Part shown: positions 15,331-48,484 of the stretch, one piece after another
How the letters are laid out: each line of letters opens with the position of its first letter
How positions within the stretch are numbered: position 1 is the stretch's first letter
Translations under genes and position numbers: made by a program
NCBI RefSeq assembly: GCF_900107215.1
Contig: NZ_FNPD01000006.1
Span: forward strand, 49,403 to 113,402
Direction: 5' to 3'
Length of the DNA stretch: 64,000 bases
Origin: Acetomicrobium thermoterrenum DSM 13490
GTDB taxonomy: Bacteria; Synergistota; Synergistia; Synergistales; Acetomicrobiaceae
Notes under the pieces: generated by a model
What the model saw: only the letters and a program-made list of their open reading frames with translations
The model's database searches: none
Told to the model about the DNA's origin: nothing

Positions 15331-15543
15331 GTTGTCATAAATCCACATATATAATTTTTATTCCAGCTGATATGCGTATATTGTGGATAGATTCCGAGCT
15401 TCTTCGCACGTCTATCCACTGTGGAAAACTCAAGCAGATCGGCCTTGTTCCACGTTATCCACAATATCCACCGCACCTATTACTGTCACTACTATTTTTT
15501 ATATTATTAAAATAAAAGTAATAAATAGGAGGGCCATTGCAAA
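15331..15543. other. oriC part 2: DnaA boxes plus AT-rich DNA unwinding element between dnaA and dnaN
   Basis: Perfect box at 15455-15463, near-boxes at 15322-30, 15382-90 and 15464-72. AT-rich stretch at 15478-15530 lies immediately before the dnaN Shine-Dalgarno. Confidence 0.7.
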
Positions 15544-17752: not shown

Positions 17753-19639
17753 ATGATATATAAGGACGAAAGAAATTTCGATGTTATAGTGGTGGGAGCA
17801 GGGCATGCCGGATGTGAGGCCGCTTTAGTTTCGGCGAGGATGGGGGCGCGAACCCTCCTTCTCAATTTGTATCTGGATAATATTGCATTGATGCCCTGTA
17901 ATCCCTCGATAGGCGGTCCGGCCAAAGGGCATATTACGAGAGAGATAGACGCCTTGGGCGGAGAACAGGCAAAGGCAGCCGATGCCTCTACCATTCATAT
18001 CAGATGGCTGAATACTTCAAAAGGGCCTGCTGTCAGGGCGCTTAGGGTACAGTGTGATTTGTCGGATTACCATAAATACATGAGAAATACCTTGGAGACT
18101 ACAATTAACCTTTATGTCCACCAAGCTCTGGTAACGGACCTTTGGGTGGAGAAGGGAAGGGTTAGAGGAGTAAAGACATGGTTGGGAGAGGAATATTATT
18201 CCCCCTGTGTGATAATAACCACGGGTCCTTATACGAATGGCAGGGTATTTATAGGTTCGCACAGCTTTCCATCGGGGCCATTGGGCCAGATGGCCTCTTT
18301 AGAGTTATCAAACTCATTAAAACGAATAGGTTTCATAATGGGAAGATTGAGAACTGATACCACACCAAGACTTCATGCTGATAGTATAGATTTTACTTCT
18401 TTAACTAAACAGGATTCTGCAGATGAACCATTATGTTTCAGCCACTGGGGGATACCGCGGATCTATAGTGGCTATTCCTGTTATTTAACGAGGTCGACGG
18501 GGAAGACGCATGAGATAATAAAGTACTCTCTTACCCGTTCTCCCCTGGCAAAGGGAGAGATAAATAGTCCCGGGCCCAGATACTGTCCTTCTATTGAAGA
18601 TAAGGTCATGAGGTTTCCTGAGAAGGAATCTCATCCCATATTTTTGGAGCCCACCTGCCGTCATTCGAAGGAAATTTATATGCAAAACTTCTCCACAAGC
18701 TTGCCCTATGATGTGCAGGTGGAAATGGTAAGAAGCGTTCCAGGATGTGAGAGGGCGCACATATTGAGACCGGGATACGCCATCGAATACGATTATTTTC
18801 CTCCGACACAACTTTATCCCTGGCTAGAGACGAAATTGGTAGAGGGGCTTTTCTTTGCAGGACAAATAAACGGCACATCCGGTTATGAGGAGGCGGCAGC
18901 CCAGGGATTGATGGCGGGCATTAATGCCGTACTGAAATTACGAAAAGAAGACCCCATAATACTAGGCAGAGAGGAAGCCTACATAGGCGTACTCATCGAT
19001 GATCTCGTGACCAAAGGGACGGAAGAGCCCTACAGGATGCTCACGAGCAGATGTGAATACAGACTGCTGATGAGACACGACAATGCTGACAAGAGGCTTG
19101 CGCCTATAGGAAGAAGGTTGGGGCTTATAGACGACGATAAATGGAGCCTCTTATTAAAGAAATGGAAGTCCATGGACGAGGAAATCGATCGCCTTAAGGG
19201 TACGAAGATTTATCCATCTTACGAGGTAAATACTTTATTATCTTCCTTAAATCAACCAAAGTTAGAAGAAACCGTAAGCGCTTACGATTTACTCAAAAGG
19301 CCGGGAATTGACTACGATATTTTATATAAAATAGCTCCATTGGAAGAGAGTTTAAACGAAGAAATAAAATCCAGAATAGAGATCGAGGTCAAGTATTCTG
19401 GCTACATAGAAAGACAGACCAGCCTTGCTTCTAAATTGCAAAGGATAGAGCAATTACGCATACCTTTGGATTTAAATTACGACGAAATTAAGGGCCTTTC
19501 TTCCGAGGGAAAGGAGAAACTCAAAAAAATCCTGCCCGGCACTTTGGGGCAGGCAGGTAGAATATCGGGGGTAACGCCTTCCGACCTTCAAATTTTGTGG
19601 ATGTATTTGGAGATGAGGAGTAAAAATAAAGCGTCATGA
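17753..19639 (+). CDS. mnmG: tRNA uridine 5-carboxymethylaminomethyl modification enzyme MnmG (GidA)
   Basis: FAD-binding DVIVVGAGHAGCEAA. 628 aa. Translationally coupled to the recF stop. Confidence 0.95.
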   Translation: MIYKDERNFDVIVVGAGHAGCEAALVSARMGARTLLLNLYLDNIALMPCNPSIGGPAKGHITREIDALGGEQAKAADASTIHIRWLNTSKGPAVRALRVQCDLSDYHKYMRNTLETTINLYVHQALVTDLWVEKGRVRGVKTWLGEEYYSPCVIITTGPYTNGRVFIGSHSFPSGPLGQMASLELSNSLKRIGFIMGRLRTDTTPRLHADSIDFTSLTKQDSADEPLCFSHWGIPRIYSGYSCYLTRSTGKTHEIIKYSLTRSPLAKGEINSPGPRYCPSIEDKVMRFPEKESHPIFLEPTCRHSKEIYMQNFSTSLPYDVQVEMVRSVPGCERAHILRPGYAIEYDYFPPTQLYPWLETKLVEGLFFAGQINGTSGYEEAAAQGLMAGINAVLKLRKEDPIILGREEAYIGVLIDDLVTKGTEEPYRMLTSRCEYRLLMRHDNADKRLAPIGRRLGLIDDDKWSLLLKKWKSMDEEIDRLKGTKIYPSYEVNTLLSSLNQPKLEETVSAYDLLKRPGIDYDILYKIAPLEESLNEEIKSRIEIEVKYSGYIERQTSLASKLQRIEQLRIPLDLNYDEIKGLSSEGKEKLKKILPGTLGQAGRISGVTPSDLQILWMYLEMRSKNKAS

Positions 19640-20124
19640 GGAGGAAAATAAGAGAACCAAAACACATAGCCGAGGTCATTGATAAGGCTTCATCGGTAAA
19701 CCTGAAGAATTTTCTGGAGTTTTATAAAGTAAGCAGTGCATGGCCTGAACTTGCAGGCAGAGTGTCGAGCAGGTCAAGACCTGTTAGTTTGTTAAAGGGA
19801 AAACTGAAGATTGTAGCCGATTCTCCATCTGTGGCTCAGGAAATCATGATGATGTCGGGGAGAATAATTTCCGAAGCCCTCTCCAAGGGCGTTAAGATCG
19901 AGTCGGTCTTGGTTAATATCGGTAGAGTGAAACCTATTGTCGGATCCCGATCTTTGAATGAAGGCAACCGTCACCGGTTTAAGCCGATTTTAAGGGGTTA
20001 CTCGACAGATGATATAGAAAGGGTAAAAAACAGATTCAATCAGAAAGGCCTGCCTAAAGATGTGTTAGATGGACTTTGCAGGCTATATATAGCTTATAAC
20101 AGAAGGTTTAATTCCTTAAAATAA
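19636..20124 (+). CDS. DUF721 (DciA-like) protein, the conserved recF/gyrB-neighbourhood helicase-operator family
   Basis: SAWPELAGRVSSRSRPVSLLKGKLKIVADSPSVAQEI follows the DUF721 pattern (W..i.G.....rP..l..g.L.v.v.s..wa.el). ATGA overlap with mnmG. Confidence 0.6.
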   Translation: MRRKIREPKHIAEVIDKASSVNLKNFLEFYKVSSAWPELAGRVSSRSRPVSLLKGKLKIVADSPSVAQEIMMMSGRIISEALSKGVKIESVLVNIGRVKPIVGSRSLNEGNRHRFKPILRGYSTDDIERVKNRFNQKGLPKDVLDGLCRLYIAYNRRFNSLK

Positions 20125-21003: not shown

Positions 21004-21402
21004 TTGGATATGAAATTTGAAACATTAATACAGTCAGGCGACTGGAAGGGTGAAAAACACGTTCCCGTTATCGAAGCTCCCGAAGAGGTGGCCTCGGGCG
21101 AAGCTTTTACCGTTACAGTTAGCGTCGGCAAGGAGATACCGCATCCCAATACTACAGAACATCATATAAGATGGATAAAGTTATTTTTTAAGGGAGAGGA
21201 CGAGAAATTTCCCTTTGAAATTGGTACATACGAGTTCAACGCCCACGGTGAGCACGTAAACGGCCCTAATACAGGCCCGGTCTATAGCGAGCCCTATGCG
21301 GTGGCAAAAATTAAACTCAACAAATCTGGCACGCTTTTGGTGATGTCTTATTGTAATATTCACGGGCTTTGGGAAAACTCCAAAGAGATAAAGGTTAAGT
21401 AG
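21004..21402 (+). CDS. sor: Superoxide reductase (neelaredoxin-type 1Fe-SOR)
   Basis: GDWKGEKHVPVIE, EIPHPNTTEHHIRWI and YCNIHGLWEN match Pyrococcus furiosus SOR almost residue for residue. Confidence 0.9.
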   Translation: MDMKFETLIQSGDWKGEKHVPVIEAPEEVASGEAFTVTVSVGKEIPHPNTTEHHIRWIKLFFKGEDEKFPFEIGTYEFNAHGEHVNGPNTGPVYSEPYAVAKIKLNKSGTLLVMSYCNIHGLWENSKEIKVK

Positions 21403-30693: not shown

Positions 30694-31482
30694 GTGGATC
30701 TGTTGATATTAGGTGCAATTGTGGGAGATATAGTCGGATCGGTATATGAGTTTGATCCGGTAAAAGACGAAAAGGCGGTAATTTTCTTTAAAGAAGGCTG
30801 CACCTACACAGACGATACCGTTCTCACTGTAGCGGTGGCCGATTGTCTGTTGCATAGAGGGTCTTACGCCGATTATTATTTAAAATATGCCAGCCGATAT
30901 CCAAACGCTGGCTATGGTCGAATGTTTAAGCTTTGGTTGAAATTTAACGGACAGAGATCTATAAAAAGCCTTGGAAACGGTTCGGCGATGAGGGCGAGCC
31001 CCATAGGATGGGCATGTAACGAAGCGGAGGACCTTTTGAGGGAGGCCGAAAAAAGTGCCCTTCCCACGCATTCAGACCCGGAGGGTATAAAGGGCGCCCA
31101 GGCCGTGGCTTTGGCCGTATTTTTAGCTCGAAAAGGTTATTTGAAGGAGCAGATAAAACGAGAAATAGAACGCCGTTTTGGATACGACCTGTCGAGAGAA
31201 CTCGAGGAAATACGTCCTTCCTACAACTTTGATGCCACCTGTCCCGGTTCCGTCCCAGAAGCGCTTATAGGTTTTTTGGAGTCCGATGATTTCGGAGACG
31301 CCTTGAGAAAAGCGATATCTTTGGGCGGCGACGCCGATACGCAGGCTGCCATAGCAGGAGCCGTGGCCCACGCATATTATGGAGGCATTCCCGGCGAAAT
31401 GGTAGAAAAGTCGAGGATGCTCCTGCCAAGCGAGTTTGTAAAGATAATTGATATATTCGTCAATACCTACGATGTCTTTTGA
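30694..31482 (+). CDS. ADP-ribosylglycohydrolase (ARH/DraG) family protein
   Basis: GAIVGDIVGS N-terminal motif and GNGSAMRASP. Start may be TTG at 30703. Confidence 0.75.
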   Translation: MDLLILGAIVGDIVGSVYEFDPVKDEKAVIFFKEGCTYTDDTVLTVAVADCLLHRGSYADYYLKYASRYPNAGYGRMFKLWLKFNGQRSIKSLGNGSAMRASPIGWACNEAEDLLREAEKSALPTHSDPEGIKGAQAVALAVFLARKGYLKEQIKREIERRFGYDLSRELEEIRPSYNFDATCPGSVPEALIGFLESDDFGDALRKAISLGGDADTQAAIAGAVAHAYYGGIPGEMVEKSRMLLPSEFVKIIDIFVNTYDVF

Positions 31483-31598
31483 TTTTGAAGTCATAGAAAA
31501 AATAAGGGTGCTGATTTGTTATCTGAGACCATAAAATAAGGACCGCGGATTTCTGCGGCCCTTATTTGGCATATCGGTGTAAGCCTTTTATAGGAGCC

Positions 31599-32411
31599 TT
31601 AGTCGACCAGCTTTAAAGGAACGGCAGCTTCCGGGGTGTTTACGTTAAACGTAAATGTTTCAGTATAATATAAGGATACTACTGTATCATTGTGCTCTTT
31701 ATAACCGATCGAGATGTCCTGTCCCGATACGAGCTCGAAATCTCCGCCGCGAAGGGAGACAACTATTCCGTCGTTTATCTGGGAAGATAGGATTATCCTG
31801 CTGTCGCCAAGAATGTCGCTGATTTTCTTGTAAAGGGGATAGCCTTCTCCTGCGGAGTATATCCTGGTATAAAGGGCCGGGCTTGCAACAAGGGCGTAGG
31901 GTCCTTCGATGCCGTGTAAGGTAAAATGCGCCCTTACCTGTGCCAAGCTTGCTAGGAGCTCCGATGGGTCTTGAAGGGGCAGTTCCTGGACAAACTCTTT
32001 TGAGGCAGCGAAAATGCCTTCTATGCAGGCATCGTCCAAACCATAGAATACTGCTTTATCTTCGAAGGATGCTATCTTTCTGGCTGCTTCTTCGAGACTA
32101 GAGAGATCGGGAGATTTGGAGCCTCTGGCTATACTGTCTAATTCGCATAGGGATAGCTCGAAGGGCACGTAAGCTTCTACCAAAGGCAAACTCAGGCGCG
32201 TAGCATAACAAACCTCTTTGGAGGCATCGCCCTTTTTAAGCTTTCCCGTCGGGTAGGCTGCATAGTCCCAACCCAGGGGGCCTATGAAATCCACAAACTT
32301 TCTTGCGGAGAGGTTCTGTTTTAATATCTCTTCCGATCTTTGGAGTATCTCTTCCCACGCAGGGTTATTTACGGGTGCAAGCTCTTTTTTTAAAAAATCC
32401 ATCTGATTCAT
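31599..32411 (-). CDS. Family-1 encapsulin nanocompartment shell protein (HK97 fold)
   Basis: Aligns along its full length to Thermotoga maritima encapsulin (FVDFIGPLGWDYAAYP, SLRGGDFELVSGQDISIGY, YYTETFTFNVNTPEA). Probable start is MDFLKK at 32402. Confidence 0.85.
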   Translation of the reverse strand: MNQMDFLKKELAPVNNPAWEEILQRSEEILKQNLSARKFVDFIGPLGWDYAAYPTGKLKKGDASKEVCYATRLSLPLVEAYVPFELSLCELDSIARGSKSPDLSSLEEAARKIASFEDKAVFYGLDDACIEGIFAASKEFVQELPLQDPSELLASLAQVRAHFTLHGIEGPYALVASPALYTRIYSAGEGYPLYKKISDILGDSRIILSSQINDGIVVSLRGGDFELVSGQDISIGYKEHNDTVVSLYYTETFTFNVNTPEAAVPLKLVD

Positions 32412-32418
32412 CCCTCCT

Positions 32419-32778
32419 TTACTTTTTAAGAGATCCGATGTTTAAGCTCGAAGGGGCTTTATCCTTCGAGGGTGTTTCGTTTGACGTCGCCGATTCTTCA
32501 ATTTCCGTAATGGGCTCTTCGGTAAAAAGGTAGGTACGAAGAGCTTCGTCCCAACTCGGCATATTTCGCCTCAGCCATTCGAGAAGCATGGCTGCGTGTT
32601 CCATTTCTTCGTCGCGATTATGCTCTACTACTGCTTTAATCGCTGGATCCTTTGTGGCTGCAGCTCTGTCGTTGTACCACATGACTGCCTCTATCTCTTC
32701 TTTGAGGCTGGCCAGGGCTCTGTGAAAATCTCTATCCTGTGCAGTGAGCTCTTCTACCGGTTCATGATATTCGGCCAT
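32419..32778 (-). CDS. Encapsulated ferritin-like cargo protein (EncFtn) with C-terminal targeting peptide
   Basis: HNRDEEMEHAAMLLEWLRRN matches the EncFtn di-iron site. The C-terminus SLNIGSLKK matches the encapsulin cargo-loading peptide. 7-nt gap to the shell gene. Confidence 0.85.
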   Translation of the reverse strand: MAEYHEPVEELTAQDRDFHRALASLKEEIEAVMWYNDRAAATKDPAIKAVVEHNRDEEMEHAAMLLEWLRRNMPSWDEALRTYLFTEEPITEIEESATSNETPSKDKAPSSLNIGSLKK

Positions 32779-32916
32779 GGAAAATCCCTCCTTAATTTGA
32801 TATGTTTTCGAAATTTATTATACTTCACAATTGGAGCTTGGGCAAAAGAACTTATTCTTTAGTACAATGAGATAGCTATCAAAGAATCAATATAAACGAT
32901 CAGGGAGAGATATATA

Positions 32917-33852
32917 ATGGAGAACAGGGAATTTCAAGTCGACGAAGCGACCGTCGATACTTCTTTAGATTGGTCGAGCCTCATTGCCTTGGCAGTTACT
33001 CTTTTAGTGTGGTCGTCGGCCTTCGCTGCGATAAAGGCAGCTCTAGAGCATTATACTCCTCTTCATCTTGCTGTCCTCCGTTTTATGATCTCTTCGCTGA
33101 TATTGCTTCCCTTCGTATTTTTTAAGTTCGGTTTGCCCCAATTAAAGGATCTCCCATTTATATTTTTTCTGAGCGCTACGGGCATGCTCCTTTACCATAT
33201 ACCGCTTTGCATTGGAGAACAGACGGTTGCGGCGGGTTCGGCAAGTCTCTTGATCGCCACGGCTCCCGTTTTCACTGCCATATTGGCCGTTATCATCTTA
33301 AAGGAAAAGATGAACCCTTTGGGCTGGGCCGGCATTATCATGAGCTTTACGGGAGCAGCCGTGATTTCACTTGGCGAAGGCGATTTTGGCCTGGAGTTGG
33401 GAGCTCTCTGGATTTTATGTGCGGCCTTTATGGAGTCCTTCTATTTCGTTTACCAGAAAAAGCTTTTACCTAAATATGGTGCCTTTCGTCTTACAACTTA
33501 TGTAATAATGGCCGGAACTATCTTGATGATCCCCTTTGGAAAGGACCTTTTGAAGGCGGTTATAACGGCACCTCCATCTGCCACTATCACTGTCGTGTAT
33601 CTCGCCATTTTCCCGACCTGCATCGGCTATGCGGGCTGGGCTTACGCCACTTCCAGAAATCCTGCCTCTCTGGTTGCCAGCAGTCTATTCCTGAATCCTG
33701 TAATGGCTATATTCATAGCTTGGATATGGCTGGACGAAATGCCCACTTTTATATCGATTATGGGTGGCGTAATCGCAATAGTTGGAGTTTGGATGTTGCA
33801 AAGATCTAGAAGGTCTGGCTCGATAGGGGATGTTTCTAAACGAAAAACATAA
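32917..33852 (+). CDS. DMT-superfamily (EamA-like) transporter
   Basis: Ten predicted transmembrane segments in two EamA repeats. Confidence 0.75.
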   Translation: MENREFQVDEATVDTSLDWSSLIALAVTLLVWSSAFAAIKAALEHYTPLHLAVLRFMISSLILLPFVFFKFGLPQLKDLPFIFFLSATGMLLYHIPLCIGEQTVAAGSASLLIATAPVFTAILAVIILKEKMNPLGWAGIIMSFTGAAVISLGEGDFGLELGALWILCAAFMESFYFVYQKKLLPKYGAFRLTTYVIMAGTILMIPFGKDLLKAVITAPPSATITVVYLAIFPTCIGYAGWAYATSRNPASLVASSLFLNPVMAIFIAWIWLDEMPTFISIMGGVIAIVGVWMLQRSRRSGSIGDVSKRKT

Positions 33853-33891: not shown

Positions 33892-34251
33892 TTGTTATCT
33901 ATAGATTATAACATCGACATGATAAGTATAAGTACAAGTATAGAAGATATAAAAGAAGCACAAGAAGCATATGAAAATGAATTTTTAATGTATCAACCTA
34001 TAATAGAGGAAAAGGCTATGGACCTTTATAGTAAAAATCCTGCCGAGGCACAATCTTATTTGACGGATTACGTTAATGACAATATAAATAAGGTTGTTGA
34101 TGGTTGGTGGTCGCTAGCGCAAAGGCTTGTTGGAAAATATTGTGATGGTTATATAACCTATCCTGACGGAAAACAGGATGCTGTTGGATATCCCACGTGG
34201 TGGTTAGAGACTGTCGAATTTGGTAAGGAGGAAATGGAACCAAAGGAATAA
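33892..34251 (+). CDS. Hypothetical small acidic protein inside the AT-rich island
   Basis: ORF of 119 aa in a region of about 30% GC. No recognisable motif, and coding status uncertain. Confidence 0.3.
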   Translation: MLSIDYNIDMISISTSIEDIKEAQEAYENEFLMYQPIIEEKAMDLYSKNPAEAQSYLTDYVNDNINKVVDGWWSLAQRLVGKYCDGYITYPDGKQDAVGYPTWWLETVEFGKEEMEPKE

Positions 34252-34418
34252 GTTTCACTTAAAATATAAAAATCCACCTAAGTTGCTCTCTAAAATTATT
34301 TTTGTATTTCATTTTCAATACGGAGCTCAGGAGAAATTAATTGATAATGTCTATCACACAATAGAGAAGAAGTCTTCTCTATCGTGTGATATTATAATCA
34401 AATAAGAGGTGTAAAAAC

Positions 34419-35408
34419 ATAACCAGATACAAAATCCTTGTTACAGGAACAAGAGGAAAGAGCACTTTGGTAAGGTTAATGACGGCTGGGTTTAAGGCAT
34501 TAGGTATCTCCTGTTTTTCTCGTATTACCGGAGTCGTCCCGATGGAAATATTGCCCAGCGGTGTTCGGCAGATAGTCAGATCGAGAGAGGGGCATATCGA
34601 AGAGCTCCGGTGGTGGCTTTACCATGTGCCCGAAGATTCGGAAGCTATCGTCGTGGAAAACAGTGCTGTCTCCGCCGAGCTTCAGCCTCTGGCGGCAAAG
34701 TGGCTCAAGCCCAACCTAGTAATCTGGACCAACTTAAAGGAAGACCATCCAGAAGCTTGGGGTCCGACGAAAGAAGGTGCGATGCGGGCTTTGCTTTCTG
34801 GGATCCCGAAGGGCGTGCCTGTAGCATTGGGCCCTGACATGCATTTGGAAGAAAAATTGCACGGGATTTTAAAACAAAATCGTAACGAGGTTTTTTTGAC
34901 AGGAGATGCTGTAGATTTTGAGGAAGCAAATAAGGCTTTAGCTATAAATGCTCTAAAGACATATGGACTTAATGTAACAGAGGAATCTCTGAGCAGTAAT
35001 TTAACTGATGATCCAGGTAGATTTAGAGTTCTAAAGATGGGTAATGGTCTTCTGGCATGGGGTTTTTCGGCTAACGACGTAGAAAGCACCGTAAGCCTTC
35101 TTTTTTCCCTTAAATGGCAGAAAGAAGAGACTACTGTGCTTTTTAACAATCGTAGAGATAGGCCGGGAAGGCTGAAGGCGTTTGAACCATGGTTTAATAA
35201 TGCTCAGTACAAAGGTATTTACATTTGCGGTTCCCATCCCCTTCGTCATATAAAAGGTGCTAAATGGATTTATTTTAGGGATGTTGACGAGATCGTTTCT
35301 TTCGTGAGTGAAAGAGGTTTGGTTTTCGGTTGCGGTAATATAGCAGGATTGCCCCTTCGAGAACTGCTCTCTTATGAAGAGGTGAATTATATCTGCGACA
35401 GGATTTAA
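34419..35408 (+). CDS. pgsB: Poly-gamma-glutamate synthase PgsB/CapB-like amide ligase
   Basis: P-loop VTGTRGKST, ENSAVSAEL and LKEDHPE, collinear with B. subtilis PgsB. No ATG/GTG/TTG lies upstream of the P-loop. AAGAGGTG Shine-Dalgarno at 34404-11 sits 7 nt before in-frame ATA at 34419. The track's TTG at 34467 would cut the P-loop. Confidence 0.65.
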   Translation: MTRYKILVTGTRGKSTLVRLMTAGFKALGISCFSRITGVVPMEILPSGVRQIVRSREGHIEELRWWLYHVPEDSEAIVVENSAVSAELQPLAAKWLKPNLVIWTNLKEDHPEAWGPTKEGAMRALLSGIPKGVPVALGPDMHLEEKLHGILKQNRNEVFLTGDAVDFEEANKALAINALKTYGLNVTEESLSSNLTDDPGRFRVLKMGNGLLAWGFSANDVESTVSLLFSLKWQKEETTVLFNNRRDRPGRLKAFEPWFNNAQYKGIYICGSHPLRHIKGAKWIYFRDVDEIVSFVSERGLVFGCGNIAGLPLRELLSYEEVNYICDRI

Positions 35409-35806
35409 TCGTTATCGCTGTAAGTATAGCTTTAGGTTTGATATTTTATCGCAGGACAGGTGTAGCTACGGGAGGGATAATTTCGCCGGGCTTGCTGGCT
35501 TTGGGGCCATTTGCACCACGTACGTTTGCCTTCGTCATACTGAGTTCGCTTCTTGTACTCTCTTTACTGGAAGTCCTCGTCAGGGTTTTTGGCCTATACG
35601 GAAGGGAAAGGGTGTCCTTTGCTTTGCTCATCGCAGCATTGCTGGGCTTTTTCTCGAACCCCTTTTTACCATGGGTTGGATGGGTGGTCCCAGGCCTTAT
35701 CGCTGCTGACATGCAGCGTCAAGGCGTCATTCCAACGTCCTTGGCGCTGTTTGTCGTTACCGGATTATCTGTCTTAATGGGGAATTTGGTATATGAGATA
35801 TTTTAA
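35393..35806 (+). CDS. pgsC: Poly-gamma-glutamate synthase membrane component PgsC/CapC
   Basis: VPGLIAADMQRQG matches B. subtilis VPGLIANTIQKQG. The upstream in-frame DLIVIAVSIALGLIF matches the PgsC N-terminus DLYIALILGVLLSLIF, so the start must lie upstream of the TTG at 35438. Candidate start is CTG 35393, 8 nt after a second AAGAGGTG. Confidence 0.65.
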   Translation: MRQDLIVIAVSIALGLIFYRRTGVATGGIISPGLLALGPFAPRTFAFVILSSLLVLSLLEVLVRVFGLYGRERVSFALLIAALLGFFSNPFLPWVGWVVPGLIAADMQRQGVIPTSLALFVVTGLSVLMGNLVYEIF

Positions 35807-36869
35807 CGCCTTCGTGCGTGGCATATTTTCGATGATCCTGGGAAAGGACACAACTTTATCGCGAAGGTGTAACCTGTATCTTTTCATGCTTGCCGCCGTT
35901 ATATCTTTATTGGTGTGGTCCTGGCCTTCAGGAACTCTCACTGTCGAGGAGGAAAGGGTTTGGGATCGGATCAGAGAAGCTCAATTTTATCTTTACAGCT
36001 TAAAAACGCAAAGAGAAGGAGTTGCTCCCTCTCAAAGCTTGGACCCTTGGCAAAGCGGTCTTATCGGGACCGAATGGAGCATCATAACTACCACAGTGGG
36101 CTCTTTGGCGTCCAAACAGATTTCATGTAATCCCCTCTGGGGCGCGATCTTTCTGCGTTGGTTCGATAAGGCGGGACTAAAGCGAGGAGACAGGATTGCA
36201 ATCTTAAGCTCAGGTTCTTTTCCAGGTTTTTTGATATCTTCCCTGGTCGCCGCAGAGGAAAGGGGGTTAGATGTGCTGCTTGTTGTCTCGCTGGGCGCAT
36301 CTTCCTATGGCGCTAATGATCCGAATTTTCCTATCCCGATAATTCTAAGGGAACTGAGAAGGGCAGGATTTATCTCTACGAAGGCGGCTTTTTATACCTT
36401 TGGCGGAGACTACGAAATAGGAGCAGGCATTCCTCCGGATGGACTTGAAATATTGTCGCAATCTGCGATATCGGACGATGTACCGCTTTTACAAGCGAAG
36501 TCATTGCAAGAAGTGATTGATGCAAAGGTAGGACGTTTGGATATATTTAAACCTGCTTTGGTGGTGCAAATTGGCGGATCTCATGCAAATATGGGAACCG
36601 ACGATGCTGTATTGTCGTTACCACCAGGTTTTTTGGATTCAAGATATGCCGAACGCGCCGGCAATGGGGTTATAGGATTGGTCCTCAAAAGAGGAATACC
36701 AGTTATACATATGCTTAACGTCAAAAGTTTATGCCGGATGACCGGCGTTTCCGAAGGGGTAGAAGTTGCAAAGAAAGGACCGAAGCCCTTCAAATTTTCA
36801 AGGGCCTTTTTAGGCCTACTATTTTTTGCCGTCTTTTTGTATAAGTATGAGCGATGGGCCTTTGAGTAA
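35793..36869 (+). CDS. Membrane-anchored protein coupled to pgsBC (possible PGA-system accessory protein; not CapA-like)
   Basis: Overlaps the pgsC stop. One N-terminal transmembrane helix. No metallophosphatase motifs of CapA/PgsA. Confidence 0.4.
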   Translation: MRYFNAFVRGIFSMILGKDTTLSRRCNLYLFMLAAVISLLVWSWPSGTLTVEEERVWDRIREAQFYLYSLKTQREGVAPSQSLDPWQSGLIGTEWSIITTTVGSLASKQISCNPLWGAIFLRWFDKAGLKRGDRIAILSSGSFPGFLISSLVAAEERGLDVLLVVSLGASSYGANDPNFPIPIILRELRRAGFISTKAAFYTFGGDYEIGAGIPPDGLEILSQSAISDDVPLLQAKSLQEVIDAKVGRLDIFKPALVVQIGGSHANMGTDDAVLSLPPGFLDSRYAERAGNGVIGLVLKRGIPVIHMLNVKSLCRMTGVSEGVEVAKKGPKPFKFSRAFLGLLFFAVFLYKYERWAFE

Positions 36870-39928: not shown

Positions 39929-40462
39929 ATGTTACTAGTCAAACATATCACTATCACTAAAGAAGGGAAAGAGGTGAGGTGTGTGACTAAAGGCACTAAA
40001 GAAGTCGAGCTCGACATTAAGGAGCTAGAGGATATCGTAAACAAGGCTAAGGAAGAGAATTTAGGTTTAATACCTCTGCTCCAGAGAACCCAGGAGGTAA
40101 TCGGCTATTTGCCGAAGGAGACCCTGGTAGTATTGTCGGAGATGTTGCACCTTCCCTACAGCAAGGTCTTCGGAGTAGCTACATTTTATGCACAGTTCCA
40201 TTTGACGCCAAGAGGACGTCACGTGATCCAACAATGCGACGGTACTGCCTGCCATGTCAAGGGAGGTCCCAGGATAAGGCGTGTCATAGAGGAAAAATTG
40301 GGCATCTCTCCCGGCGAAACTACCGAGGATTTGAAGGCTACATACGAGATCGTCTATTGTTTGGGTTCCTGCGGCCTGGCGCCAGCTGCAATGATCGATG
40401 GCAAGGTGATTGGAAGGCTGACTCAGGAGAAAATGAAGAGAATTTTAGATTCGATGGAGTGA
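39929..40462 (+). CDS. NuoE/HoxE-like [2Fe-2S] thioredoxin-fold subunit (StnA/HndA-like)
   Basis: CDGTACHVKG....CLGSCGLAPA four-cysteine motif. Confidence 0.8.
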   Translation: MLLVKHITITKEGKEVRCVTKGTKEVELDIKELEDIVNKAKEENLGLIPLLQRTQEVIGYLPKETLVVLSEMLHLPYSKVFGVATFYAQFHLTPRGRHVIQQCDGTACHVKGGPRIRRVIEEKLGISPGETTEDLKATYEIVYCLGSCGLAPAAMIDGKVIGRLTQEKMKRILDSME

Positions 40463-40472
40463 GGGGAGCGAA

Positions 40473-40874
40473 ATGTGCAGCTTTAAGTTGAAAGGCCCCG
40501 AGGATCTTGAGAAGTTGGCCGAAGAGGCCAGGAAGGAGCTGGTAATTAGGGAGGGTGCTGAATTTACGGTAAAAGTCTTCATCGGATCGCTAAATAACAG
40601 AGAGACATATAAAAAAGTGGCCAAGGCCTTTGTGGATGAAACGAAAAGGGCTAACGTCAGAGCCAGGGTGATAATTGCAGAGGGTGAAGCTGCTTCTGGT
40701 TTCGACCCCCTCGTCGAGATAAATACACCGCGGGACGGCGTTGTTCTTTACGCAAACATCACTCCCGACAAAGTTCCCATCCTGGTAAGAGAGCATTTGG
40801 TAAGGGGAAAAATTGTTTCTGAGTGGATCATCTCTCAGAAGCGCAGCCAGCATGTGCTCTTTAGCTGGCATTAA
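40473..40874 (+). CDS. Small HndB-like thioredoxin-fold protein lacking cluster-binding cysteines
   Basis: Sits between the NuoE-like and NuoF-like genes, as hndB does in hnd operons. Only one Cys in 133 aa. Confidence 0.35.
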   Translation: MCSFKLKGPEDLEKLAEEARKELVIREGAEFTVKVFIGSLNNRETYKKVAKAFVDETKRANVRARVIIAEGEAASGFDPLVEINTPRDGVVLYANITPDKVPILVREHLVRGKIVSEWIISQKRSQHVLFSWH

Positions 40875-40902
40875 TTTCTAATGATATATTGGAGAGATTG
40901 TC

Positions 40903-43900
40903 ATGTCAGTTAATTATCGTGCAAATATTTTGTGTTGCAGAGGTACGAGTTGTACGGCGGGCGGATCCCGTGAGATATTGGAATCCTTTAGAGAACAAAT
41001 AAAGTTGCATGACCTAGAAGATGAGGTCTCCCTTTCCTTTTCCGGTTGTCACGGGTTGTGCTCCATAGGTCCTATCGTGGTGATATATCCGGAGGATATA
41101 TTTTATTGTCAAGTAGAGCCAGAAGATGTGCCTGAAATAGTGGAGAAAACCCTTATTCGGGGCAAATTGGTGGATCGACTTTTGTTTAAAGATCCTATAA
41201 CGTATGAAGCTATCCCTCACTATCATCAGATTCCCTTTTACATGAATCAGACGAGAATTTTGTTGAGAAATTGTGGCCTCATAAATCCGGAACGCATCGA
41301 GGAATACATAGCAAGAGAAGGTTACCAGGGTTTGGCCAAGGCGCTTTATAAAATGTCTCCGCAACATGTCATAGAAGAAGTAAAAAGCTCAAATTTGAGA
41401 GGGCGAGGAGGCGGCGGTTTCCCAACGGGGGTTAAATGGGATTTAACAAGAAAAAACCCCGCGGAACCTAAATACGTGATTTGCAACGCCGACGAAGGGG
41501 ATCCGGGAGCCTTCATGGATCGAAGCTTGATCGAGGGAGATCCTCATGCTTTGATCGAAGGGATGCTCATCGCAGGCTATGCTATAGGAGCGCAAAAAGG
41601 ATTCATTTACTGTAGGGCCGAATACCCTTTGGCCATACAGAGGCTGAAAATAGCCATTGACCAGGCTAAGGAATATGGTTTGTTGGGAGAAGGCATTTTA
41701 GGTTCCAACTTTAATTTCGACATAGAAATAAAGGAAGGCGCCGGAGCCTTCGTCTGTGGCGAAGAGACGGCCTTGATTGCCTCTATAGAGGGCCGAAGGG
41801 GAGAGCCCAGGCCGCGGCCACCCTTTCCCGCAGAAAGGGGTCTCTGGGACAAGCCGACGAATATAAACAACGTAAAAAGCTACGCCTTCGTCCCCCAAAT
41901 CATTTTAAACGGTCATGAGTGGTTTTCCTCCATCGGCACGGAAAAAAGCAAGGGGACGGCAGTGTTTGCCCTGACCGGCAAGGTAAAAAACACCGGATTG
42001 CTTGAAATTCCAATGGGAACGACTATAGGGGAAATCATTTTCGATGTGGGAGAAGGTGTGGCCAAGGACAGGCAGTTCAAGGCAGTGCAAACGGGAGGCC
42101 CTTTGGGAGGATGTCTTCCCTCTGACGCTTTAAACCTCCCCGTCGATTTCGATTCCCTCACGGCTTCCGGCGCCCTGATGGGTTCCGGCGGAATGATCGT
42201 CGTGGATGAGACTACCTGCATGGTGGAGCTCGCTAGGTTCTTCCTGCAGTTTGCCGTGGCTGAATCCTGCGGGCAATGCACCCCCTGTCGGGTTGGCGGA
42301 AACAAGATGCTCGAGATACTCACGCGGATAACAAAAGGACAGGGCAAGATGGAAGATTTGGATATGCTGGAAGAGATAGCGAAGTTCATGAAAAAAGCTT
42401 CTCTCTGTGCTCTCGGACAAGGTGCTCCAAATCCGGTGTTGTCGACGCTCCGTTATTTTAGAGATGAATACGAAAGGCATATATTGGACTTAAGATGTCC
42501 TGCTGGGGCGTGTACGACTCTTGCGCCCTCCCCCTGTCAAAGTGCCTGCCCTGCAGAGGTAAAAATTCCCATCTATGTTTCTTTAATATCGGAAGGAAGG
42601 TATGACGAAGCGCTGGATATACACAGGGCATCCAATCCCTTCCCTTCCGTTTGTGGGCGGGTTTGTCCCTCTTTCTGCGAAGATAAATGTAGGAGAGGAG
42701 AGGTCGATGAACCCGTTGCAATAAGAGATTTGAAGCGCTTCATGGCCGATCGCGAATCTGAAGAATGGTTCCCTAAAGCTTACGAACCAGATAAAGGAAA
42801 AAGCGTAGGTATAGTTGGGGGCGGACCGGGAGGCCTTACCGCAGCTTTAAGATTGGCTCAACTTGGATATGAAGTTTGCATTTATGAAGAAAGCTCGGAA
42901 CTGGGCGGCATGATGAGGTGGGGCATTCCCGATTACAGGTTGCCCAAGGACGTGTTGAGAAAGGAAATAAATTCGATCTTGAACGTCGGGAAAATCGATG
43001 TCAAGTTAAATACTAAAGTAAGTCGCGATATCACAATTGAAGACCTGTTAAAAACTCATGATGCCCTTTTGCTGGCCATAGGGGCACAGGGCTCCAGGGA
43101 TTTAGGAATTCCTGGCTATGAGCTTTCCGGCGTCGAAAGCGGCGTTTCCTTGCTGCGAAAGCTAAATATGGGCGATGACCTCTCCTTCGTCAAGGGTAAA
43201 AGGGTAGTAGTGGTAGGCGGAGGAAATGTCGCCATGGATGCCGCACGATCCCTTCTCAGGCTAGGGGCCAAGGAAGTTCACCTGGTCTATCGAAGGGAGC
43301 GCAAAGATATGCCTGCCCTTGTGGAAGAAGTCGAGGCTGCCGAGGAGGAGGGAATCCACTTCGACCTCAGCACACGCAGGTGGCGCAGACGGAGAATATC
43401 GGCAGAAGAGGAGAGGGTTATATTCCATTATTTAACATCTCCCGTAAAGGTGCTCGGAGAGAATGGAAGGGTTACAGGATTGCTTTGTCAAAAACTTAAA
43501 CTTCACGACGAAAGTGGTAAAAGCCAGTTCGATTCCTCGGCCAGGAAGGTCTCCTTTCCGGTGAAAGGAAGCGAGTTTGTTCTTGACGCTGATGTAATCG
43601 TTGCCGCCATAGGGCAAAAGGTAGAGCAACCCTCATTGGAGGATTTGGGCATCAAACAACACAGGAATGGCACGATCTTGGTAGATGAGAGGAGCTTGAT
43701 GACCAGTCGGGAGGGCGTATTTGCAGTTGGAGATGTAGTGTTGGGGCCAGCAAGCATAGTGGAAGCCGTCGGCCAGGGAAACAAAGCGGCACGGGCAATC
43801 GACAGGTTCCTAAGAGGGCTATCCCTTCCTGAACCGCCTTCATTTATCGAAAGACCGGAGCCGCAAAAGTATGAAATTTCCGAAGAAGATGCGGAGCGAC

Positions 43901-44037
43901 CGAGGGCTAAGACGTCCATATTGTCGCCCGAAACGAGGGTTTACGATTTCAGGGAGGTCAACTTGGGTTTTCCCAACGAAGCTGTGGCCAGGTCGGAAGC
44001 GAGAAGATGCCTTCGATGCGACCTGGAAGAGCGCTAA
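40903..44037 (+). CDS. Fusion protein: N-terminal [2Fe-2S] domain, NuoF-like NAD(H)/FMN/[4Fe-4S] module, 2x[4Fe-4S] ferredoxin, and GltD-like NAD(P)H/FAD oxidoreductase (StnB-like)
   Basis: GRGGGGFPTGVKW FMN site, SCGQCTPCR, CxxCxxC clusters, then GIVGGGPGGLTAA and VVVVGGGNVAMD dinucleotide folds typical of GltD/NfnB. Confidence 0.85.
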   Translation: MSVNYRANILCCRGTSCTAGGSREILESFREQIKLHDLEDEVSLSFSGCHGLCSIGPIVVIYPEDIFYCQVEPEDVPEIVEKTLIRGKLVDRLLFKDPITYEAIPHYHQIPFYMNQTRILLRNCGLINPERIEEYIAREGYQGLAKALYKMSPQHVIEEVKSSNLRGRGGGGFPTGVKWDLTRKNPAEPKYVICNADEGDPGAFMDRSLIEGDPHALIEGMLIAGYAIGAQKGFIYCRAEYPLAIQRLKIAIDQAKEYGLLGEGILGSNFNFDIEIKEGAGAFVCGEETALIASIEGRRGEPRPRPPFPAERGLWDKPTNINNVKSYAFVPQIILNGHEWFSSIGTEKSKGTAVFALTGKVKNTGLLEIPMGTTIGEIIFDVGEGVAKDRQFKAVQTGGPLGGCLPSDALNLPVDFDSLTASGALMGSGGMIVVDETTCMVELARFFLQFAVAESCGQCTPCRVGGNKMLEILTRITKGQGKMEDLDMLEEIAKFMKKASLCALGQGAPNPVLSTLRYFRDEYERHILDLRCPAGACTTLAPSPCQSACPAEVKIPIYVSLISEGRYDEALDIHRASNPFPSVCGRVCPSFCEDKCRRGEVDEPVAIRDLKRFMADRESEEWFPKAYEPDKGKSVGIVGGGPGGLTAALRLAQLGYEVCIYEESSELGGMMRWGIPDYRLPKDVLRKEINSILNVGKIDVKLNTKVSRDITIEDLLKTHDALLLAIGAQGSRDLGIPGYELSGVESGVSLLRKLNMGDDLSFVKGKRVVVVGGGNVAMDAARSLLRLGAKEVHLVYRRERKDMPALVEEVEAAEEEGIHFDLSTRRWRRRRISAEEERVIFHYLTSPVKVLGENGRVTGLLCQKLKLHDESGKSQFDSSARKVSFPVKGSEFVLDADVIVAAIGQKVEQPSLEDLGIKQHRNGTILVDERSLMTSREGVFAVGDVVLGPASIVEAVGQGNKAARAIDRFLRGLSLPEPPSFIERPEPQKYEISEEDAERPRAKTSILSPETRVYDFREVNLGFPNEAVARSEARRCLRCDLEER

Positions 44038-45752
44038 AGGAAGTGTTGACGATGTCTGATATTACCTTGGAAATTAACGGCAGGAAAGTTCAGGGGAGCT
44101 CGGGAGATACGATACTAAAGGTATGCGAGAAAAATGCTATTGTCGTGCCTACACTGTGTCATTTCGAGGGCCTTGCCGATATCGGAGTTTGCCGCATGTG
44201 TCTGGTTGAGGTAAAGGGCGCAAGAGGTCTCGTTCCAGCCTGCACAACGCAAGCTACGGATGGCATGGCGATAGTTACCGAAAACGATGAAATCAGGGAT
44301 CTCAGGCGTTCAAATCTCGAAATGCTCTTTTCCGAGCGAAACCATTTTTGCATGTTTTGCGAAAAGAGCGGAGATTGCGAACTTCAGAAATTGGCCTACG
44401 AGTACGGCTTGGACCACATCAGCTATGGTTTCTTTTGGCCCGAATTGCCCATGGATATCAGCAGAAAATATTTTTTATACGATCAAAACCGCTGTATTCT
44501 CTGCAGGAGATGTCTGAGGGCCTGCGAAGAGTTGGCCGGACATTCCGTTTTGACAGTTCGAGACAGGGGGCCCAAAAGTATGATATGTGCTGACGTCGAC
44601 CTTCCCTTCATCGAATCTACCTGTGTCTCTTGCGGAACCTGTTTGCAAGTCTGCCCAACCGGGGCCTTGGCGGACAGGAAGAGCACATACATCGGAAGGC
44701 AAGAACATATGACTAAAACGAGAAGTGCCTGTGCCTTCTGTAGCGTTGGCTGTGAAGTAGAGATATCCTCGCGAGACGGCGAGCCATTGCGAATAGAAGG
44801 AATATTCGGCCAGGGGCCTACTTCCGGGATTTTGTGTTCAAAGGGAAGGTTTGAGCCCCTTTTCGAGGTAAATAAAAGGCTGGACAGACCGCTATTGAGG
44901 GAAGATGAGGGCAAAAGAAGCTTAAATCTAAATGAAGCCTTGTCTGTTTTAGCAAAAAAGATCAAAGAATGGGGAATTAATTCCTTTGCGGGATTGATAT
45001 CCCCTCGAGCCACAAACGAAGCTGCGTTTCAATTCAAAATGCTGTTTGGCGATAACGTCTTTTTAATCGATTCCTTTTCTGTGCCCCTTGGCAATGCCTC
45101 TATTGAAGAAATCGACGATGCAGATTGTATAGTCGTTGTCGGTGCAAATCTGGACGAGGAATTTAAGGCCCTAAGTTCCTTCGTCAAGAGGGGCGCGAAT
45201 CTAGGATCGACCGTCGTAGTCATGGGTTCTGCCGGGGCAAAGGTAGATATTCGTGCGACATATCGCTTTCATGATGAAGATATTGACTCTCTGAGCGAGG
45301 TCATGGGAAGGTTCTCTAATCCCCTTGTCGTCTATGGGCCGGGGACGAAAAGATCGGTTATGGAGTTTTTATGGGGGCTACGTCCCGGCGTCAGACAGCT
45401 TGGCCTGGCTCGAGGAAGCAACATTCGCGGTATTGAAAAGTTGAAGATCAAACCTTGGAAGAAAGACAAAGGGTTCAGAGGCTTATACGCTCTGCTGGGC
45501 GATTTCGAAGTTTCCGACGATTTGTTGGGACAACTGGGCAATGCCGAATTCCTTGCGGTACAGTCTTGCTACGAAAATGAAGCGGTAAATTACGCCGATT
45601 TGGCCTTGCCTTCCAGGCTTTGGTTCGAACGTTCGGGCACTTATATAAATACCGAAGGAAAAGTTAGACATCTCGAGGCCATACCTGAAATTGCGCTGTC
45701 CCTCCCTTCGGATGAGGAAATCTTAAAGGGTTTAATTAAACTGTTGAGTTAA
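44007..45752 (+). CDS. NuoG-like Fe-S subunit with a truncated molybdopterin-oxidoreductase domain (StnC-like; no catalytic module)
   Basis: 2Fe-2S N-terminus (CHFEGLADIGVCRMC), NuoG HxxxC and 4Fe-4S motifs, and an MopB Fe4S4 start ACAFCSVGC...LCSKGRF. Only 581 aa. Likely start is MSDITLEING at 44052. Confidence 0.75.
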   Translation: MPSMRPGRALKEVLTMSDITLEINGRKVQGSSGDTILKVCEKNAIVVPTLCHFEGLADIGVCRMCLVEVKGARGLVPACTTQATDGMAIVTENDEIRDLRRSNLEMLFSERNHFCMFCEKSGDCELQKLAYEYGLDHISYGFFWPELPMDISRKYFLYDQNRCILCRRCLRACEELAGHSVLTVRDRGPKSMICADVDLPFIESTCVSCGTCLQVCPTGALADRKSTYIGRQEHMTKTRSACAFCSVGCEVEISSRDGEPLRIEGIFGQGPTSGILCSKGRFEPLFEVNKRLDRPLLREDEGKRSLNLNEALSVLAKKIKEWGINSFAGLISPRATNEAAFQFKMLFGDNVFLIDSFSVPLGNASIEEIDDADCIVVVGANLDEEFKALSSFVKRGANLGSTVVVMGSAGAKVDIRATYRFHDEDIDSLSEVMGRFSNPLVVYGPGTKRSVMEFLWGLRPGVRQLGLARGSNIRGIEKLKIKPWKKDKGFRGLYALLGDFEVSDDLLGQLGNAEFLAVQSCYENEAVNYADLALPSRLWFERSGTYINTEGKVRHLEAIPEIALSLPSDEEILKGLIKLLS

Positions 45753-46524: not shown

Positions 46525-46570
46525 AACCAAGACTATGGGATATGAAATGCAAAGGGGAAGTGGTGAGTCG

Positions 46571-48484
46571 ATGAAGACAACAGTCGCTGATTTAAAGGAA
46601 TATACTGCAAACGATATACAGATTTTGGAAGGCCTTGAGGCGGTCCGCCGCAGGCCGAGCATGTACATCGGCGATACGGGCATCAGAGGCTTGCATCATC
46701 TGGTCTACGAAGTGGTGGATAACGCCATAGATGAAGCAATGGCGGGATATTGCGATCAGGTGAGCGTGATCGTTTATCCCGATGGCAGCGTGTCCGTGGA
46801 GGATAACGGAAGGGGTATACCCGTAGATACCCATCCGAAGGTGAATAAGCCTGCGGCGGAAGTGGTGTTGACGATTCTCCACGCCGGGGGCAAATTCGAC
46901 AACAAAGCCTACCAGGTATCGGGTGGGCTGCACGGTGTCGGCGTATCCGTCGTCAACGCCCTTTCGACATGGCTTGAGCTTATCATATGGCGTGACGGGA
47001 TGGAGTGGCATCAACGCTATTCCAGGGGTGTTCCCCAGTGCGAATTGACCCCTGTGGGCAAGGCCGATCGGACTGGCACTAAAGTGCACTTCTTGCCCGA
47101 CGATACTATCTTTGAAGAAAAGGATTTTTCCTTTGACGTTTTAAGCTCCAGGTTGCGGGAAATTGCCTTTTTGGTGCCTGGCTTGAAGATAGATCTGAAG
47201 GATTTGAGGAACAACAAATCTGTTGCCTTTAAATACGATGGCGGTGTGATTTCCTTTGTGGAGTATCTGAACAGAGACAAAAACCCTCTGTTCAAGGAAC
47301 CAATTTACATAAAGGGAGATAAGGACGATGTCCTTGTGGAAGTTGCCCTCCAGTACAACGATTCCTTTCAGGAGAGGGTCTTTGCCTTCGCCAACCTAAT
47401 CCATACAGTAGAAGGCGGCACACATGTGGTGGGTTTCAGGACGGCTTTGACCAGGGCTGTAAACGAAATGGCGAGGAGGCAGAAACTTTTAAAGGACAAG
47501 GATGCAAACTTGTCGGGCGATGATTTGAAAGAGGGGCTTACTGCGATAATATCGGTTAAGCTTAAGGAGCCCCAATTCGAAGGACAGACCAAGACGAAGC
47601 TTGGTAACAGCGATGTCAGGGGTATAGTGGATTCGATCGTTTACGATGGGCTGATGGCCTTTTTGGAGGAAAAGCCCGATTGTTTGAGGCCTATCGTTGA
47701 AAAGGCCATAAAGGCAAGGCAGGCGAGGGATGCAGCGAAAAAGGCGAGGGAGCTGGTCAGGCGAAAATCGGCCTTTGGAGGGCTGGACTTGCCGGGCAAG
47801 CTGGCCGACTGTTCCAGCAAAGATCCCGAAGAGTGCGAGCTTTACATAGTGGAGGGAGATTCGGCGGGAGGCAGCGCAAAACAGGGCAGGAACAGGACCT
47901 TTCAAGCGATACTACCCCTTCGCGGCAAGATACTCAACGTCGAAAAGGCGCGCCTCGACAAAGTTCTGTCAAATGCCGAAATCAGGACGATTATTCAAGC
48001 CCTAGGTTGCGGAATAGGGGAGGATTTCGACGTCAATAAACTTCGCTACCATAGGGTCATAATAATGACCGATGCCGACGTCGACGGCGCACATATCAGG
48101 ACCCTTTTGCTCGCCTTCTTTTATCGTTTCATGCCGGGAATAATCGAGGGAGGGCACCTCTATATCGCTCAGCCCCCTCTTTATAGGGTACAGGCGGGCA
48201 AAAGCGAATATTACTGTTACTCCGATAAGGAGTTGCGCAATCTGGCGGACAAACTTGCTAACAAGAAGATATCGGTGCAGCGTTACAAGGGCCTTGGCGA
48301 GATGAACCCCGAACAGCTGTGGAAGACGACGATGGATCCCAACGAAAGAATACTGAAGCGCGTTGATGTAGAAGATGCCCTCGCTGCCGACGAGTATTTC
48401 ACGATATTGATGGGAGACAAGGTGGAGCCCCGAAGGGAGTTTATAGAGAGCCACGCTAACGAAGTGAGAAATTTGGATGTATAA
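46571..48484 (+). CDS. gyrB: DNA gyrase subunit B
   Basis: [38 protein letters not shown], Toprim [10 protein letters not shown] and C-terminal [10 protein letters not shown]. The ATG at 46571 gives an N-terminal length comparable to B. subtilis GyrB; 46535 is the alternative. Confidence 0.95.

Follow-up and report, generated by a model that had tools for sequence, protein, structure and literature searches.

A family-1 encapsulin operon with a ferritin-like cargo gene in Acetomicrobium thermoterrenum

Introduction

Does a thermophilic anaerobe of the Synergistota carry a complete encapsulin nanocompartment, and if so, is it of the ordinary kind? The question is raised by two adjacent genes of Acetomicrobium thermoterrenum DSM 13490, situated within a stretch of 64,000 nucleotides (contig NZ_FNPD01000006.1, positions 49,403 to 113,402; hereafter the window, in whose own numbering all positions are given). 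An original prediction, made from the letters alone, had read the pair as an encapsulin operon consisting of a 119-aa ferritin-like cargo protein of the EncFtn type and a 270-aa family-1 shell protein, and had further proposed that it sits in an unusually dense set of iron and oxidative-stress functions. Acetomicrobium is a thermophilic and strictly anaerobic genus. Ferritin-like (Flp-type) cargo proteins make up the second largest class of family-1 encapsulin systems and occur in 23 bacterial phyla (Andreas & Giessen 2021, PMC8346489). Our analysis leaves little doubt that the locus is a complete classical (family-1) encapsulin operon of two genes, one of them for an Flp/EncFtn cargo, on the Acetomicrobium chromosome. 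On the other hand, the shell differs from its closest solved homologue at the flavin-stacking residue of an external flavin site, and the context claim did not hold in full.

Results

Shell protein

Both open reading frames (ORFs) were found exactly where they had been predicted, and the order of an upstream cargo and a downstream shell gene is right for the minus strand, which the prediction had left unstated:

32419-32778, minus strand: EncFtn (encapsulated ferritin-like cargo), 119 aa; matches to PF22277, TIGR04535 and PDB entries, invariant ligand columns
31599-32411, minus strand: mechanical shell ORF, 270 aa, counted from the first ATG
31599-32402, minus strand: family-1 encapsulin shell, 267 aa from the second in-frame ATG; matches to NF041155, PF04454 and 3DKT, AlphaFold model

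The shell protein matched the NCBIfam equivalog NF041155 (family 1 encapsulin nanocompartment shell protein) with 273.4 bits against a cut-off of 100, spanning the entire model (1-261/261), and likewise Linocin_M18 (PF04454) over its full length (1-253/253; 251 bits, E=1.3e-74). The predicted full-length alignment to the encapsulin of Thermotoga maritima (3DKT/7K5W) was recovered, with residues 4-268 aligned to 1-265 at 42% identity (E ~1e-62). Further solved relatives include the encapsulin of Haliangium ochraceum (7ODW, E=5e-56) and the T=1 shells of mycobacteria, Brevibacterium and Klebsiella (E from 1e-48 to 1e-37), while T=3/T=4 shells of Myxococcus xanthus and Quasibacillus thermotolerans reached only 1e-12 or weaker. 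An AlphaFold2 model with 48 homologues as input had a mean predicted local distance difference test score (pLDDT) of 87.8 and a predicted template modelling score (pTM) of 0.83; low confidence was limited to residues 50-55 and 69-71, which we assigned to the E-loop by position alone. The predicted fold is of the HK97 type, with A-domain, P-domain and E-loop, and has no phage-specific additions. In a Foldseek search against the PDB, the best 50 rows were all encapsulins, headed by T=1 shells with template modelling (TM) scores of 0.85-0.88 over 265-270 columns, followed by a weaker second tier of T=3/T=4 shells (TM 0.72-0.77, 18-24% identity).

Since encapsulin shells and phage capsids have the HK97 fold in common and Pfam-level searches can confuse them (PMC8346489), the larger gene might be the remnant of an HK97-type prophage capsid gene with an unrelated small gene upstream. 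The match to the family-1 equivalog at 273 bits (cut-off 100) speaks against this, as do the best sequence and structure matches, all of which are encapsulins. Moreover, next to it lies a genuine EncFtn gene, complete with targeting peptide, and synteny of the locus extends across species. Genes for a terminase, portal, phage protease or tail were not found in the ~20 kb around the operon, whose neighbours are genes for an EamA protein, an ADP-ribosylglycohydrolase, M48 and M17 peptidases, pst/phoU and poly-gamma-glutamate proteins. The equivalog match, the EncFtn neighbour and the absence of phage genes effectively refute a prophage origin.

A second possibility, a secreted bacteriocin or protease instead of a compartment, derives from the historical names "linocin M18" and "maritimacin", and some homologues are still called "bacteriocin family protein" or "Maritimacin" in databases. 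However, the structures of these same proteins are closed icosahedral shells with cargo peptide (PDB; PMC8086157, PMC8791618). Neither a signal peptide nor an export gene is present at the locus, and the shell gene is coupled to a cargo gene with a targeting peptide, which together reduce the probability of this reading to practically nil.

A third possibility concerns the size of the assembled cage, which could have a higher triangulation (T) number, T=3 or T=4 like those of M. xanthus and Q. thermotolerans, and would then store far more iron. The T number is uncertain from sequence, and some shells are polymorphic, e.g. M. xanthus EncA with both T=1 and T=3 PDB entries. However, the close solved relatives (E 1e-63 to 1e-37, 37-42% identity, TM 0.85-0.88) are all T=1 shells of 264-266 aa, whereas the T=3/T=4 shells are longer and more distant. 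Moreover, descriptions of EncFtn-type cargo in bacteria have to date involved T=1 shells (PMC8346489). We thus regard a larger cage as very unlikely. A T=1 shell of 60 subunits and ~24 nm, the particle size that the original prediction had proposed to look for, can reasonably be expected by homology to these closest relatives.

EncFtn cargo protein

The 119-aa protein spanned the whole Pfam model PF22277 (EncFtn-like; 137.4 bits, cut-off 27, E=1.4e-40) and matched NCBIfam TIGR04535 (encapsulin-associated ferritin-like protein) with 164.4 bits at a cut-off of 125. Thus, the two family models that had been named as a check, PF04454 and that of the EncFtn family, were both hit with strong support. 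Scores of the EncB_fam and EncB models stayed below their cut-offs, so the cargo is not of the EncB type. Among PDB entries, the EncFtn proteins of Rhodospirillum rubrum, H. ochraceum and Nitrosomonas europaea were matched with E-values from 1e-33 to 1e-28.

In R. rubrum EncFtn, an inter-subunit di-iron ferroxidase centre is formed by Glu32, Glu62 and His65 with Tyr39, and Glu31 and Glu34 form a secondary (entry) metal site (He et al. 2016, PMC5012862). The alignment of the window protein with this EncFtn (Rru_A0973) contains no gaps and has an offset of +4, so that the ferroxidase residues map to E28, E58, H61 and Y35. All Glu and His ligands are therefore retained, in agreement with the di-iron motif that had been claimed. 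The residues E27, E30 and W34 correspond to E31, E34 and W38 of R. rubrum, and Trp38 is reportedly a further part of the entry site. Ferroxidase and entry-site residues alike are invariant in all six aligned EncFtn sequences, which come from Synergistota, Bacteroidales and Proteobacteria. Given 50-55% identity to crystallised decamers, the protein is predicted to form a metal-dependent annular decamer of D5 symmetry with ferroxidase activity.

Targeting peptide

The EncFtn protein terminates as claimed in ...APSSLNIGSLKK (= ...KDKAPSSLNIGSLKK), where the C-terminal targeting peptide SSLNIGSLKK is preceded by a flexible linker rich in Ser, Thr and Lys (~residues 88-110). Ross et al. modelled the peptide of H. 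ochraceum in density at the shell P-domain, on its inner face, and condensed it to a GxLGIxxL core (PMC8791618). The window peptide aligns with 117-GSLGIGSLR-125 of H. ochraceum position by position, and this alignment to a peptide resolved on its own shell supports the proposed role of SLNIGSLKK in cargo loading. The Leu, Ile and Leu anchors are kept, with Ser and Asn at the two Gly positions. An identical peptide occurs in three lineages of the Acetomicrobium clade, and relatives from Bacteroidales have SLEIGNIK or GSLGISK. When targeting-peptide-like tails were sought at the N- and C-termini of all 305 window ORFs of at least 50 aa, EncFtn alone was found to have one.

Conservation of the gene pair

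The window DNA is 96-97% identical to contigs of the metagenome-assembled genomes (MAGs) Acetomicrobium sp. UBA5826 and UBA3949. More distant loci, here referred to by L numbers, are L003 (a Synergistaceae MAG) and L006, with amino-acid identities of 71-83%. In comparison to these two, non-synonymous divergence (pN) of both genes was 0.08-0.18 at a synonymous divergence (pS) of ~0.8, hence both are under purifying selection. Within the Acetomicrobium clade the order EamA, EncFtn-shell, M48 and M17 is kept; in Aminithiophilus, Aminivibrio and Bacteroidales the EncFtn-shell pair alone is kept and its neighbours are different. Only the pair persists between genera, across Synergistota, and the functional unit is the two-gene module.

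Several differences in gene content were seen next to the pair. On an Aminivibrio-type contig of a more distant Synergistota locus (L010), a rubrerythrin gene (4881-5375) lies directly 3' of the shell gene, a position without a counterpart in the window. An ADP-ribosylglycohydrolase gene (30694-31482) is located between the shell and M48 peptidase genes; matching DNA is present in the closest relatives, L001 and L002, and the stretch is missing from the syntenic loci L003 and L006-L008, which points to a lineage-specific insertion that faces the encapsulin operon convergently. Between the EamA and M20 peptidase genes, a poly-gamma-glutamate set (33892-36869) comprises a PgsB-like protein below the NCBIfam cut-off, CapC and a poly-gamma-glutamate system protein with 351 bits. 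Judging by alignment gaps, L006 lacks this set and L002 lacks part of it, and the set can thus be regarded as a variable region beside the operon.

Operon signals and shell start codon

The following elements accompany the two genes:

32793-32845, minus strand: promoter-like site and leader, with -35 TTGCCC at 32840-32845, a 17-nt spacer and -10 TATAAT at 32817-32822
32786-32792, minus strand: Shine-Dalgarno sequence AGGAGGG of EncFtn, 7 nt before the ATG, kept in all Acetomicrobium-clade loci
32412-32418, minus strand: Shine-Dalgarno sequence AGGAGGG of the shell gene, directly after the EncFtn stop (32419-32421), same layout in L001, L002, L003 and L006
31534-31567, minus strand: terminator hairpin with a 13-bp stem, an 8-nt loop and A-/U-rich flanking arms, 32 nt past the shell stop

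In a consensus scan, the promoter-like site matched 10 of 12 consensus positions. The leader TATAAT-AAATTTCGAAAACATATCAAATTA (32793-32826, minus strand) lies between the -10 box and the Shine-Dalgarno sequence of EncFtn; the ~45 nt from the TATAAT to the Shine-Dalgarno sequence are near-invariant across clade loci in which synonymous sites are saturated, and this conservation suggests a candidate transcription start or operator, or a constrained 5' untranslated region. No copies beyond chance were found elsewhere in the window (a single match with 3 mismatches at 13558 lies inside a coding region), and the motif is absent upstream of EncFtn in Aminithiophilus and Aminivibrio, which together identify it as a clade-specific promoter or leader. 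At a permissive E-value, a search of 31400-33000 against Rfam yielded a sole chance-level match to a small RNA (20 bits, gathering score 50), so the leader contains no known RNA element. Inspected by eye for a Fur or PerR box, it showed poor resemblance. A perfect 10-bp palindrome, GATAGCTATC at 32871-32880, was noticed in the divergent EamA/EncFtn intergenic region and is conserved in L001 and L002 only.

At the other end of the operon, the hairpin folds with -25.1 kcal/mol (z=-3.4), and none of 200 shuffled sequences folded as well. A terminator-like match is present on the plus strand as well, at 31543-31558. The hairpin is common to the operon and the convergent ADP-ribosylglycohydrolase gene and therefore is probably bidirectional, ending both.

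From the EncFtn stop to the conserved shell ATG there are 16 nt. The sequence AGGAGGG abuts the first ATG of the shell ORF with a spacer of 0 nt, and the second ATG (32402) is 9 nt away. As this spacing suits the second ATG, and the shell orthologues in L003 and L006 start at MDFLKK, the true start is most likely 32402. Accordingly, the ORF of 270 aa that had been predicted is exact in its coordinates, but its product is probably a protein of 267 aa.

Flavin-site residues of the shell

The T. maritima encapsulin carries flavin mononucleotide (FMN) on its exterior near the three-fold axis, stacked on Trp87, which is W90 in LaFrance et al. (PMC8086157, PMC8610991). Flavin binding is abolished by the replacements W90E or W90A (PMC8610991), and a review of 2024 describes the flavin ring as sandwiched between that Trp and an Arg, without numbering the latter (PMC11664910). 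We aligned the window shell with that of T. maritima and the 120 best homologues, 122 sequences in total. The Trp87 column contains W in 109 sequences and C in four. The second column, T. maritima R79, which may be the sandwiching Arg of the review, has R in 118 of the 122 and Y in four. The sequences with C and those with Y are the same four, namely the window shell and three proteins of the Acetomicrobium clade (P0001-P0003). In the window, the two codons are:

32145-32147, minus strand: Cys codon, C86 of the 267-aa shell and C89 of the 270-aa ORF
32169-32171, minus strand: Tyr codon, Y78 of the 267-aa shell and Y81 of the 270-aa ORF

The flavin-stacking aromatic (Trp87/Trp90) that marks the T. 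maritima-type flavin-binding subgroup is thus a Cys in the window shell. The Cys/Tyr pair is kept down to 71% identity, and so it represents a maintained, derived state. With Trp replaced by Cys and R79 by Tyr, the external FMN site of T. maritima, which most anaerobic relatives keep, is most likely absent from the window shell, and its loss is the simplest reading.

Surrounding genes

Two iron- or oxygen-related genes outside the operon had been named in the original prediction, and both are real. The protein encoded at 21004-21402 is a superoxide reductase of the 1Fe type (PF01880, 118 bits) with matches to T. maritima 2AMU (E=2e-53) and, as claimed, to the P. furiosus enzyme (1DO6, E=6e-47). 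Its ORF was called from a TTG; the alignment to 2AMU begins at residue 3 (MKFETL...), which makes the ATG at 21010 the probable true start. At 52217-53110, the MbfA-like architecture was recovered, with an N-terminal rubrerythrin/erythrin domain just over its cut-off (23.4 bits) and a VIT1 transporter domain; NCBIfam models gave no match to this protein. A nitroreductase gene (51538-52158) adjoins the MbfA-like gene on the opposite strand.

The operon could belong to a wider island of jointly regulated iron and oxidative-stress genes that includes those of the superoxide reductase and the MbfA-like protein. Both of these genes and the nitroreductase gene are located within the same 64 kb, and in Aminivibrio the shell gene is directly followed by the rubrerythrin gene mentioned above. 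However, distances of 10 and 19 kb, filled with housekeeping genes, separate the superoxide reductase and MbfA-like genes from the operon, the strands vary, a second convincing copy of the EncFtn leader motif does not exist in the window, and only the two-gene module is conserved between genera. The intervening genes include dnaA, dnaN, recF, mnmG and the gene of a DciA protein, pstCAB-phoU, a PAS histidine kinase, peptidases, the poly-gamma-glutamate genes, NuoE/NuoF/NuoG-type genes, gyrB and an AddA-like helicase. The iron-related genes of the window are scattered singletons, which leaves a co-regulated island very improbable, and of the dense set that had been described the individual genes stand while their clustering with the operon finds little support.

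Besides these, the window comprises a chromosomal origin region with dnaA, dnaN, recF, mnmG (gidA), a DciA-domain protein and, further on, gyrB (13990-20124, 46535-48484). A run of genes resembling those of electron-bifurcating hydrogenases or formate dehydrogenases extends over 39929-45752 and encodes a NuoE-like 2Fe-2S protein, a 1044-aa NuoF-like/GltD-like fusion and a 581-aa NuoG-like protein. The last has partial molybdopterin-domain matches only and is followed by ~780 bp of small ORFs and then gyrB. A truncated or selenocysteine-interrupted molybdopterin oxidoreductase was considered at 44007-45752 and rejected, as the ORF appears to be full-length and only small ORFs follow in the gap downstream.

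Discussion

The analysis shows two intact genes of clear family membership, whose catalytic and targeting residues are conserved, which come with operon signals of their own, evolve under purifying selection and are kept together as a pair. These results converge on an operon for an encapsulin with an EncFtn cargo. By analogy to its relatives, a mechanism can be outlined. Both genes would be co-transcribed from a promoter in the EamA/EncFtn intergenic region, with transcripts ending at the hairpin past the shell gene. Shell proteins would self-assemble into a T=1 icosahedral cage of 60 subunits and ~24 nm, and EncFtn would form metal-bridged decameric rings. The SSLNIGSLKK peptides could dock in a hydrophobic pocket of the inner shell face, so that EncFtn would be packaged during assembly. 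Fe(II) might then pass the shell pores and be oxidised at di-iron centres between EncFtn subunits (E28, E58, H61), and ferric mineral would be laid down and kept within the shell, i.e. Fenton-reactive iron would be removed and stored at the same time. The oxidant is presumably O2 or H2O2, encountered on transient exposure of this strict anaerobe. The sequence offers nothing at odds with this scheme.

Four points weigh against such a straightforward picture. Assembly, T number, cargo loading and encapsulation, ferroxidase activity and, with them, the physiological role are predictions carried over from homologues with 40-55% identity. In the targeting peptide (SSLNIGSL), both Gly residues of the GxLGIxxL core are replaced. 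The start codon of the shell is ambiguous, resulting in either 270 or 267 aa. Finally, the shell is devoid of the flavin-binding Trp of its closest solved homologue, although flavin has been proposed to be important for anaerobes: LaFrance et al. observed that Flp encapsulins with the Trp belong almost exclusively to anaerobes, and speculated that the flavin is needed there.

This last point can be viewed in two ways. The external flavin pocket might have been remodelled and not just lost, given that Trp to Cys and Arg to Tyr changed together and that the pair has been retained across lineages that are only 71% identical and saturated at synonymous sites. In that case, Tyr could stack on the isoalloxazine ring and the nearby thiol could contact the ring or a metal, which might mean another cofactor binding mode or a redox-sensitive thiol on the shell exterior. 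We consider this remodelling unlikely. If the site has simply been lost, as we prefer, the shell would be a naturally flavin-free Flp encapsulin from a strict anaerobe and, hence, a counter-example to the proposed flavin need of anaerobes. The Acetomicrobium shell may serve as a natural control for whether shell-bound flavin matters in iron oxidation and release by anaerobes, and a thermostable shell with a surface Cys may interest encapsulin engineers.

Comparison with known systems

How new is this operon? At the catalogue level it is already known, and it is an ordinary family-1 EncFtn encapsulin operon. Among the Family 1 FLP systems, the supplement of the 2021 census lists A. thermoterrenum DSM 13490 itself (shell A0A1H3FRD8, cargo A0A1H3FRN0) and Acetomicrobium hydrogeniformans ATCC BAA-1850 (shell A0A0T5XAD4, cargo A0A0T5XAW5) (PMC8346489). 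The operon is therefore not new, as orthologues from Acetomicrobium had been included there. In cargo class and in the order of the upstream genes (NuoE-like, MurB, GNAT, M20 peptidase, poly-gamma-glutamate protein, CapC), both census systems agree with the window, and they were catalogued computationally only. A full-text literature search for encapsulin together with Acetomicrobium or Synergistetes found no experimentally characterised Synergistota encapsulin. As a discovery the operon is minor, since family-1 encapsulins loaded with Flp/EncFtn are well studied and several structures have been solved. Its value is that of a verified annotation, which now covers strand, probable start codon, operon signals, catalytic residues and targeting peptide.

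With regard to the cargo, the systems of H. ochraceum and R. rubrum (7OE2/7ODW, 5DA5, 9RZU) are among the closest known. Their EncFtn proteins are 50-55% identical to that of the window over a gapless core, with identical residues in the ferroxidase centre and the entry site, and the peptide GSLGIGSLR of H. ochraceum, docked on the shell P-domain, aligns with the window peptide. Differences are found in the targeting peptide, where Ser and Asn replace the two core Gly, and in the linker, which is shorter in the window protein. Moreover, H. ochraceum and R. rubrum are mesophilic Proteobacteria, unlike the host studied here.

The closest solved shell is that of T. maritima (TmEnc, 3DKT/7KQ5/7K5W), with 42% identity over the full length and TM scores of 0.85-0.86. 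This thermophilic anaerobe shares the same two-gene operon, in which Flp/EncFtn precedes the shell. The residues W45, R70 and E77, which stabilise the E-loop, and Tyr188-Pro189 of the five-fold pore are kept in the window shell. On the other hand, pore His187 is replaced by Gly, W87 in the numbering of 3DKT (W90 of LaFrance et al.) by Cys and R79 by Tyr, and the T. maritima targeting peptide, which is of the GGDLGIRK type, differs from the SLNIGSLKK of the window. A small comparative point remains: in this lineage of anaerobic thermophiles, the flavin-stacking Trp, and probably the flavin-site Arg too, has been replaced where almost all nearest relatives have kept it.

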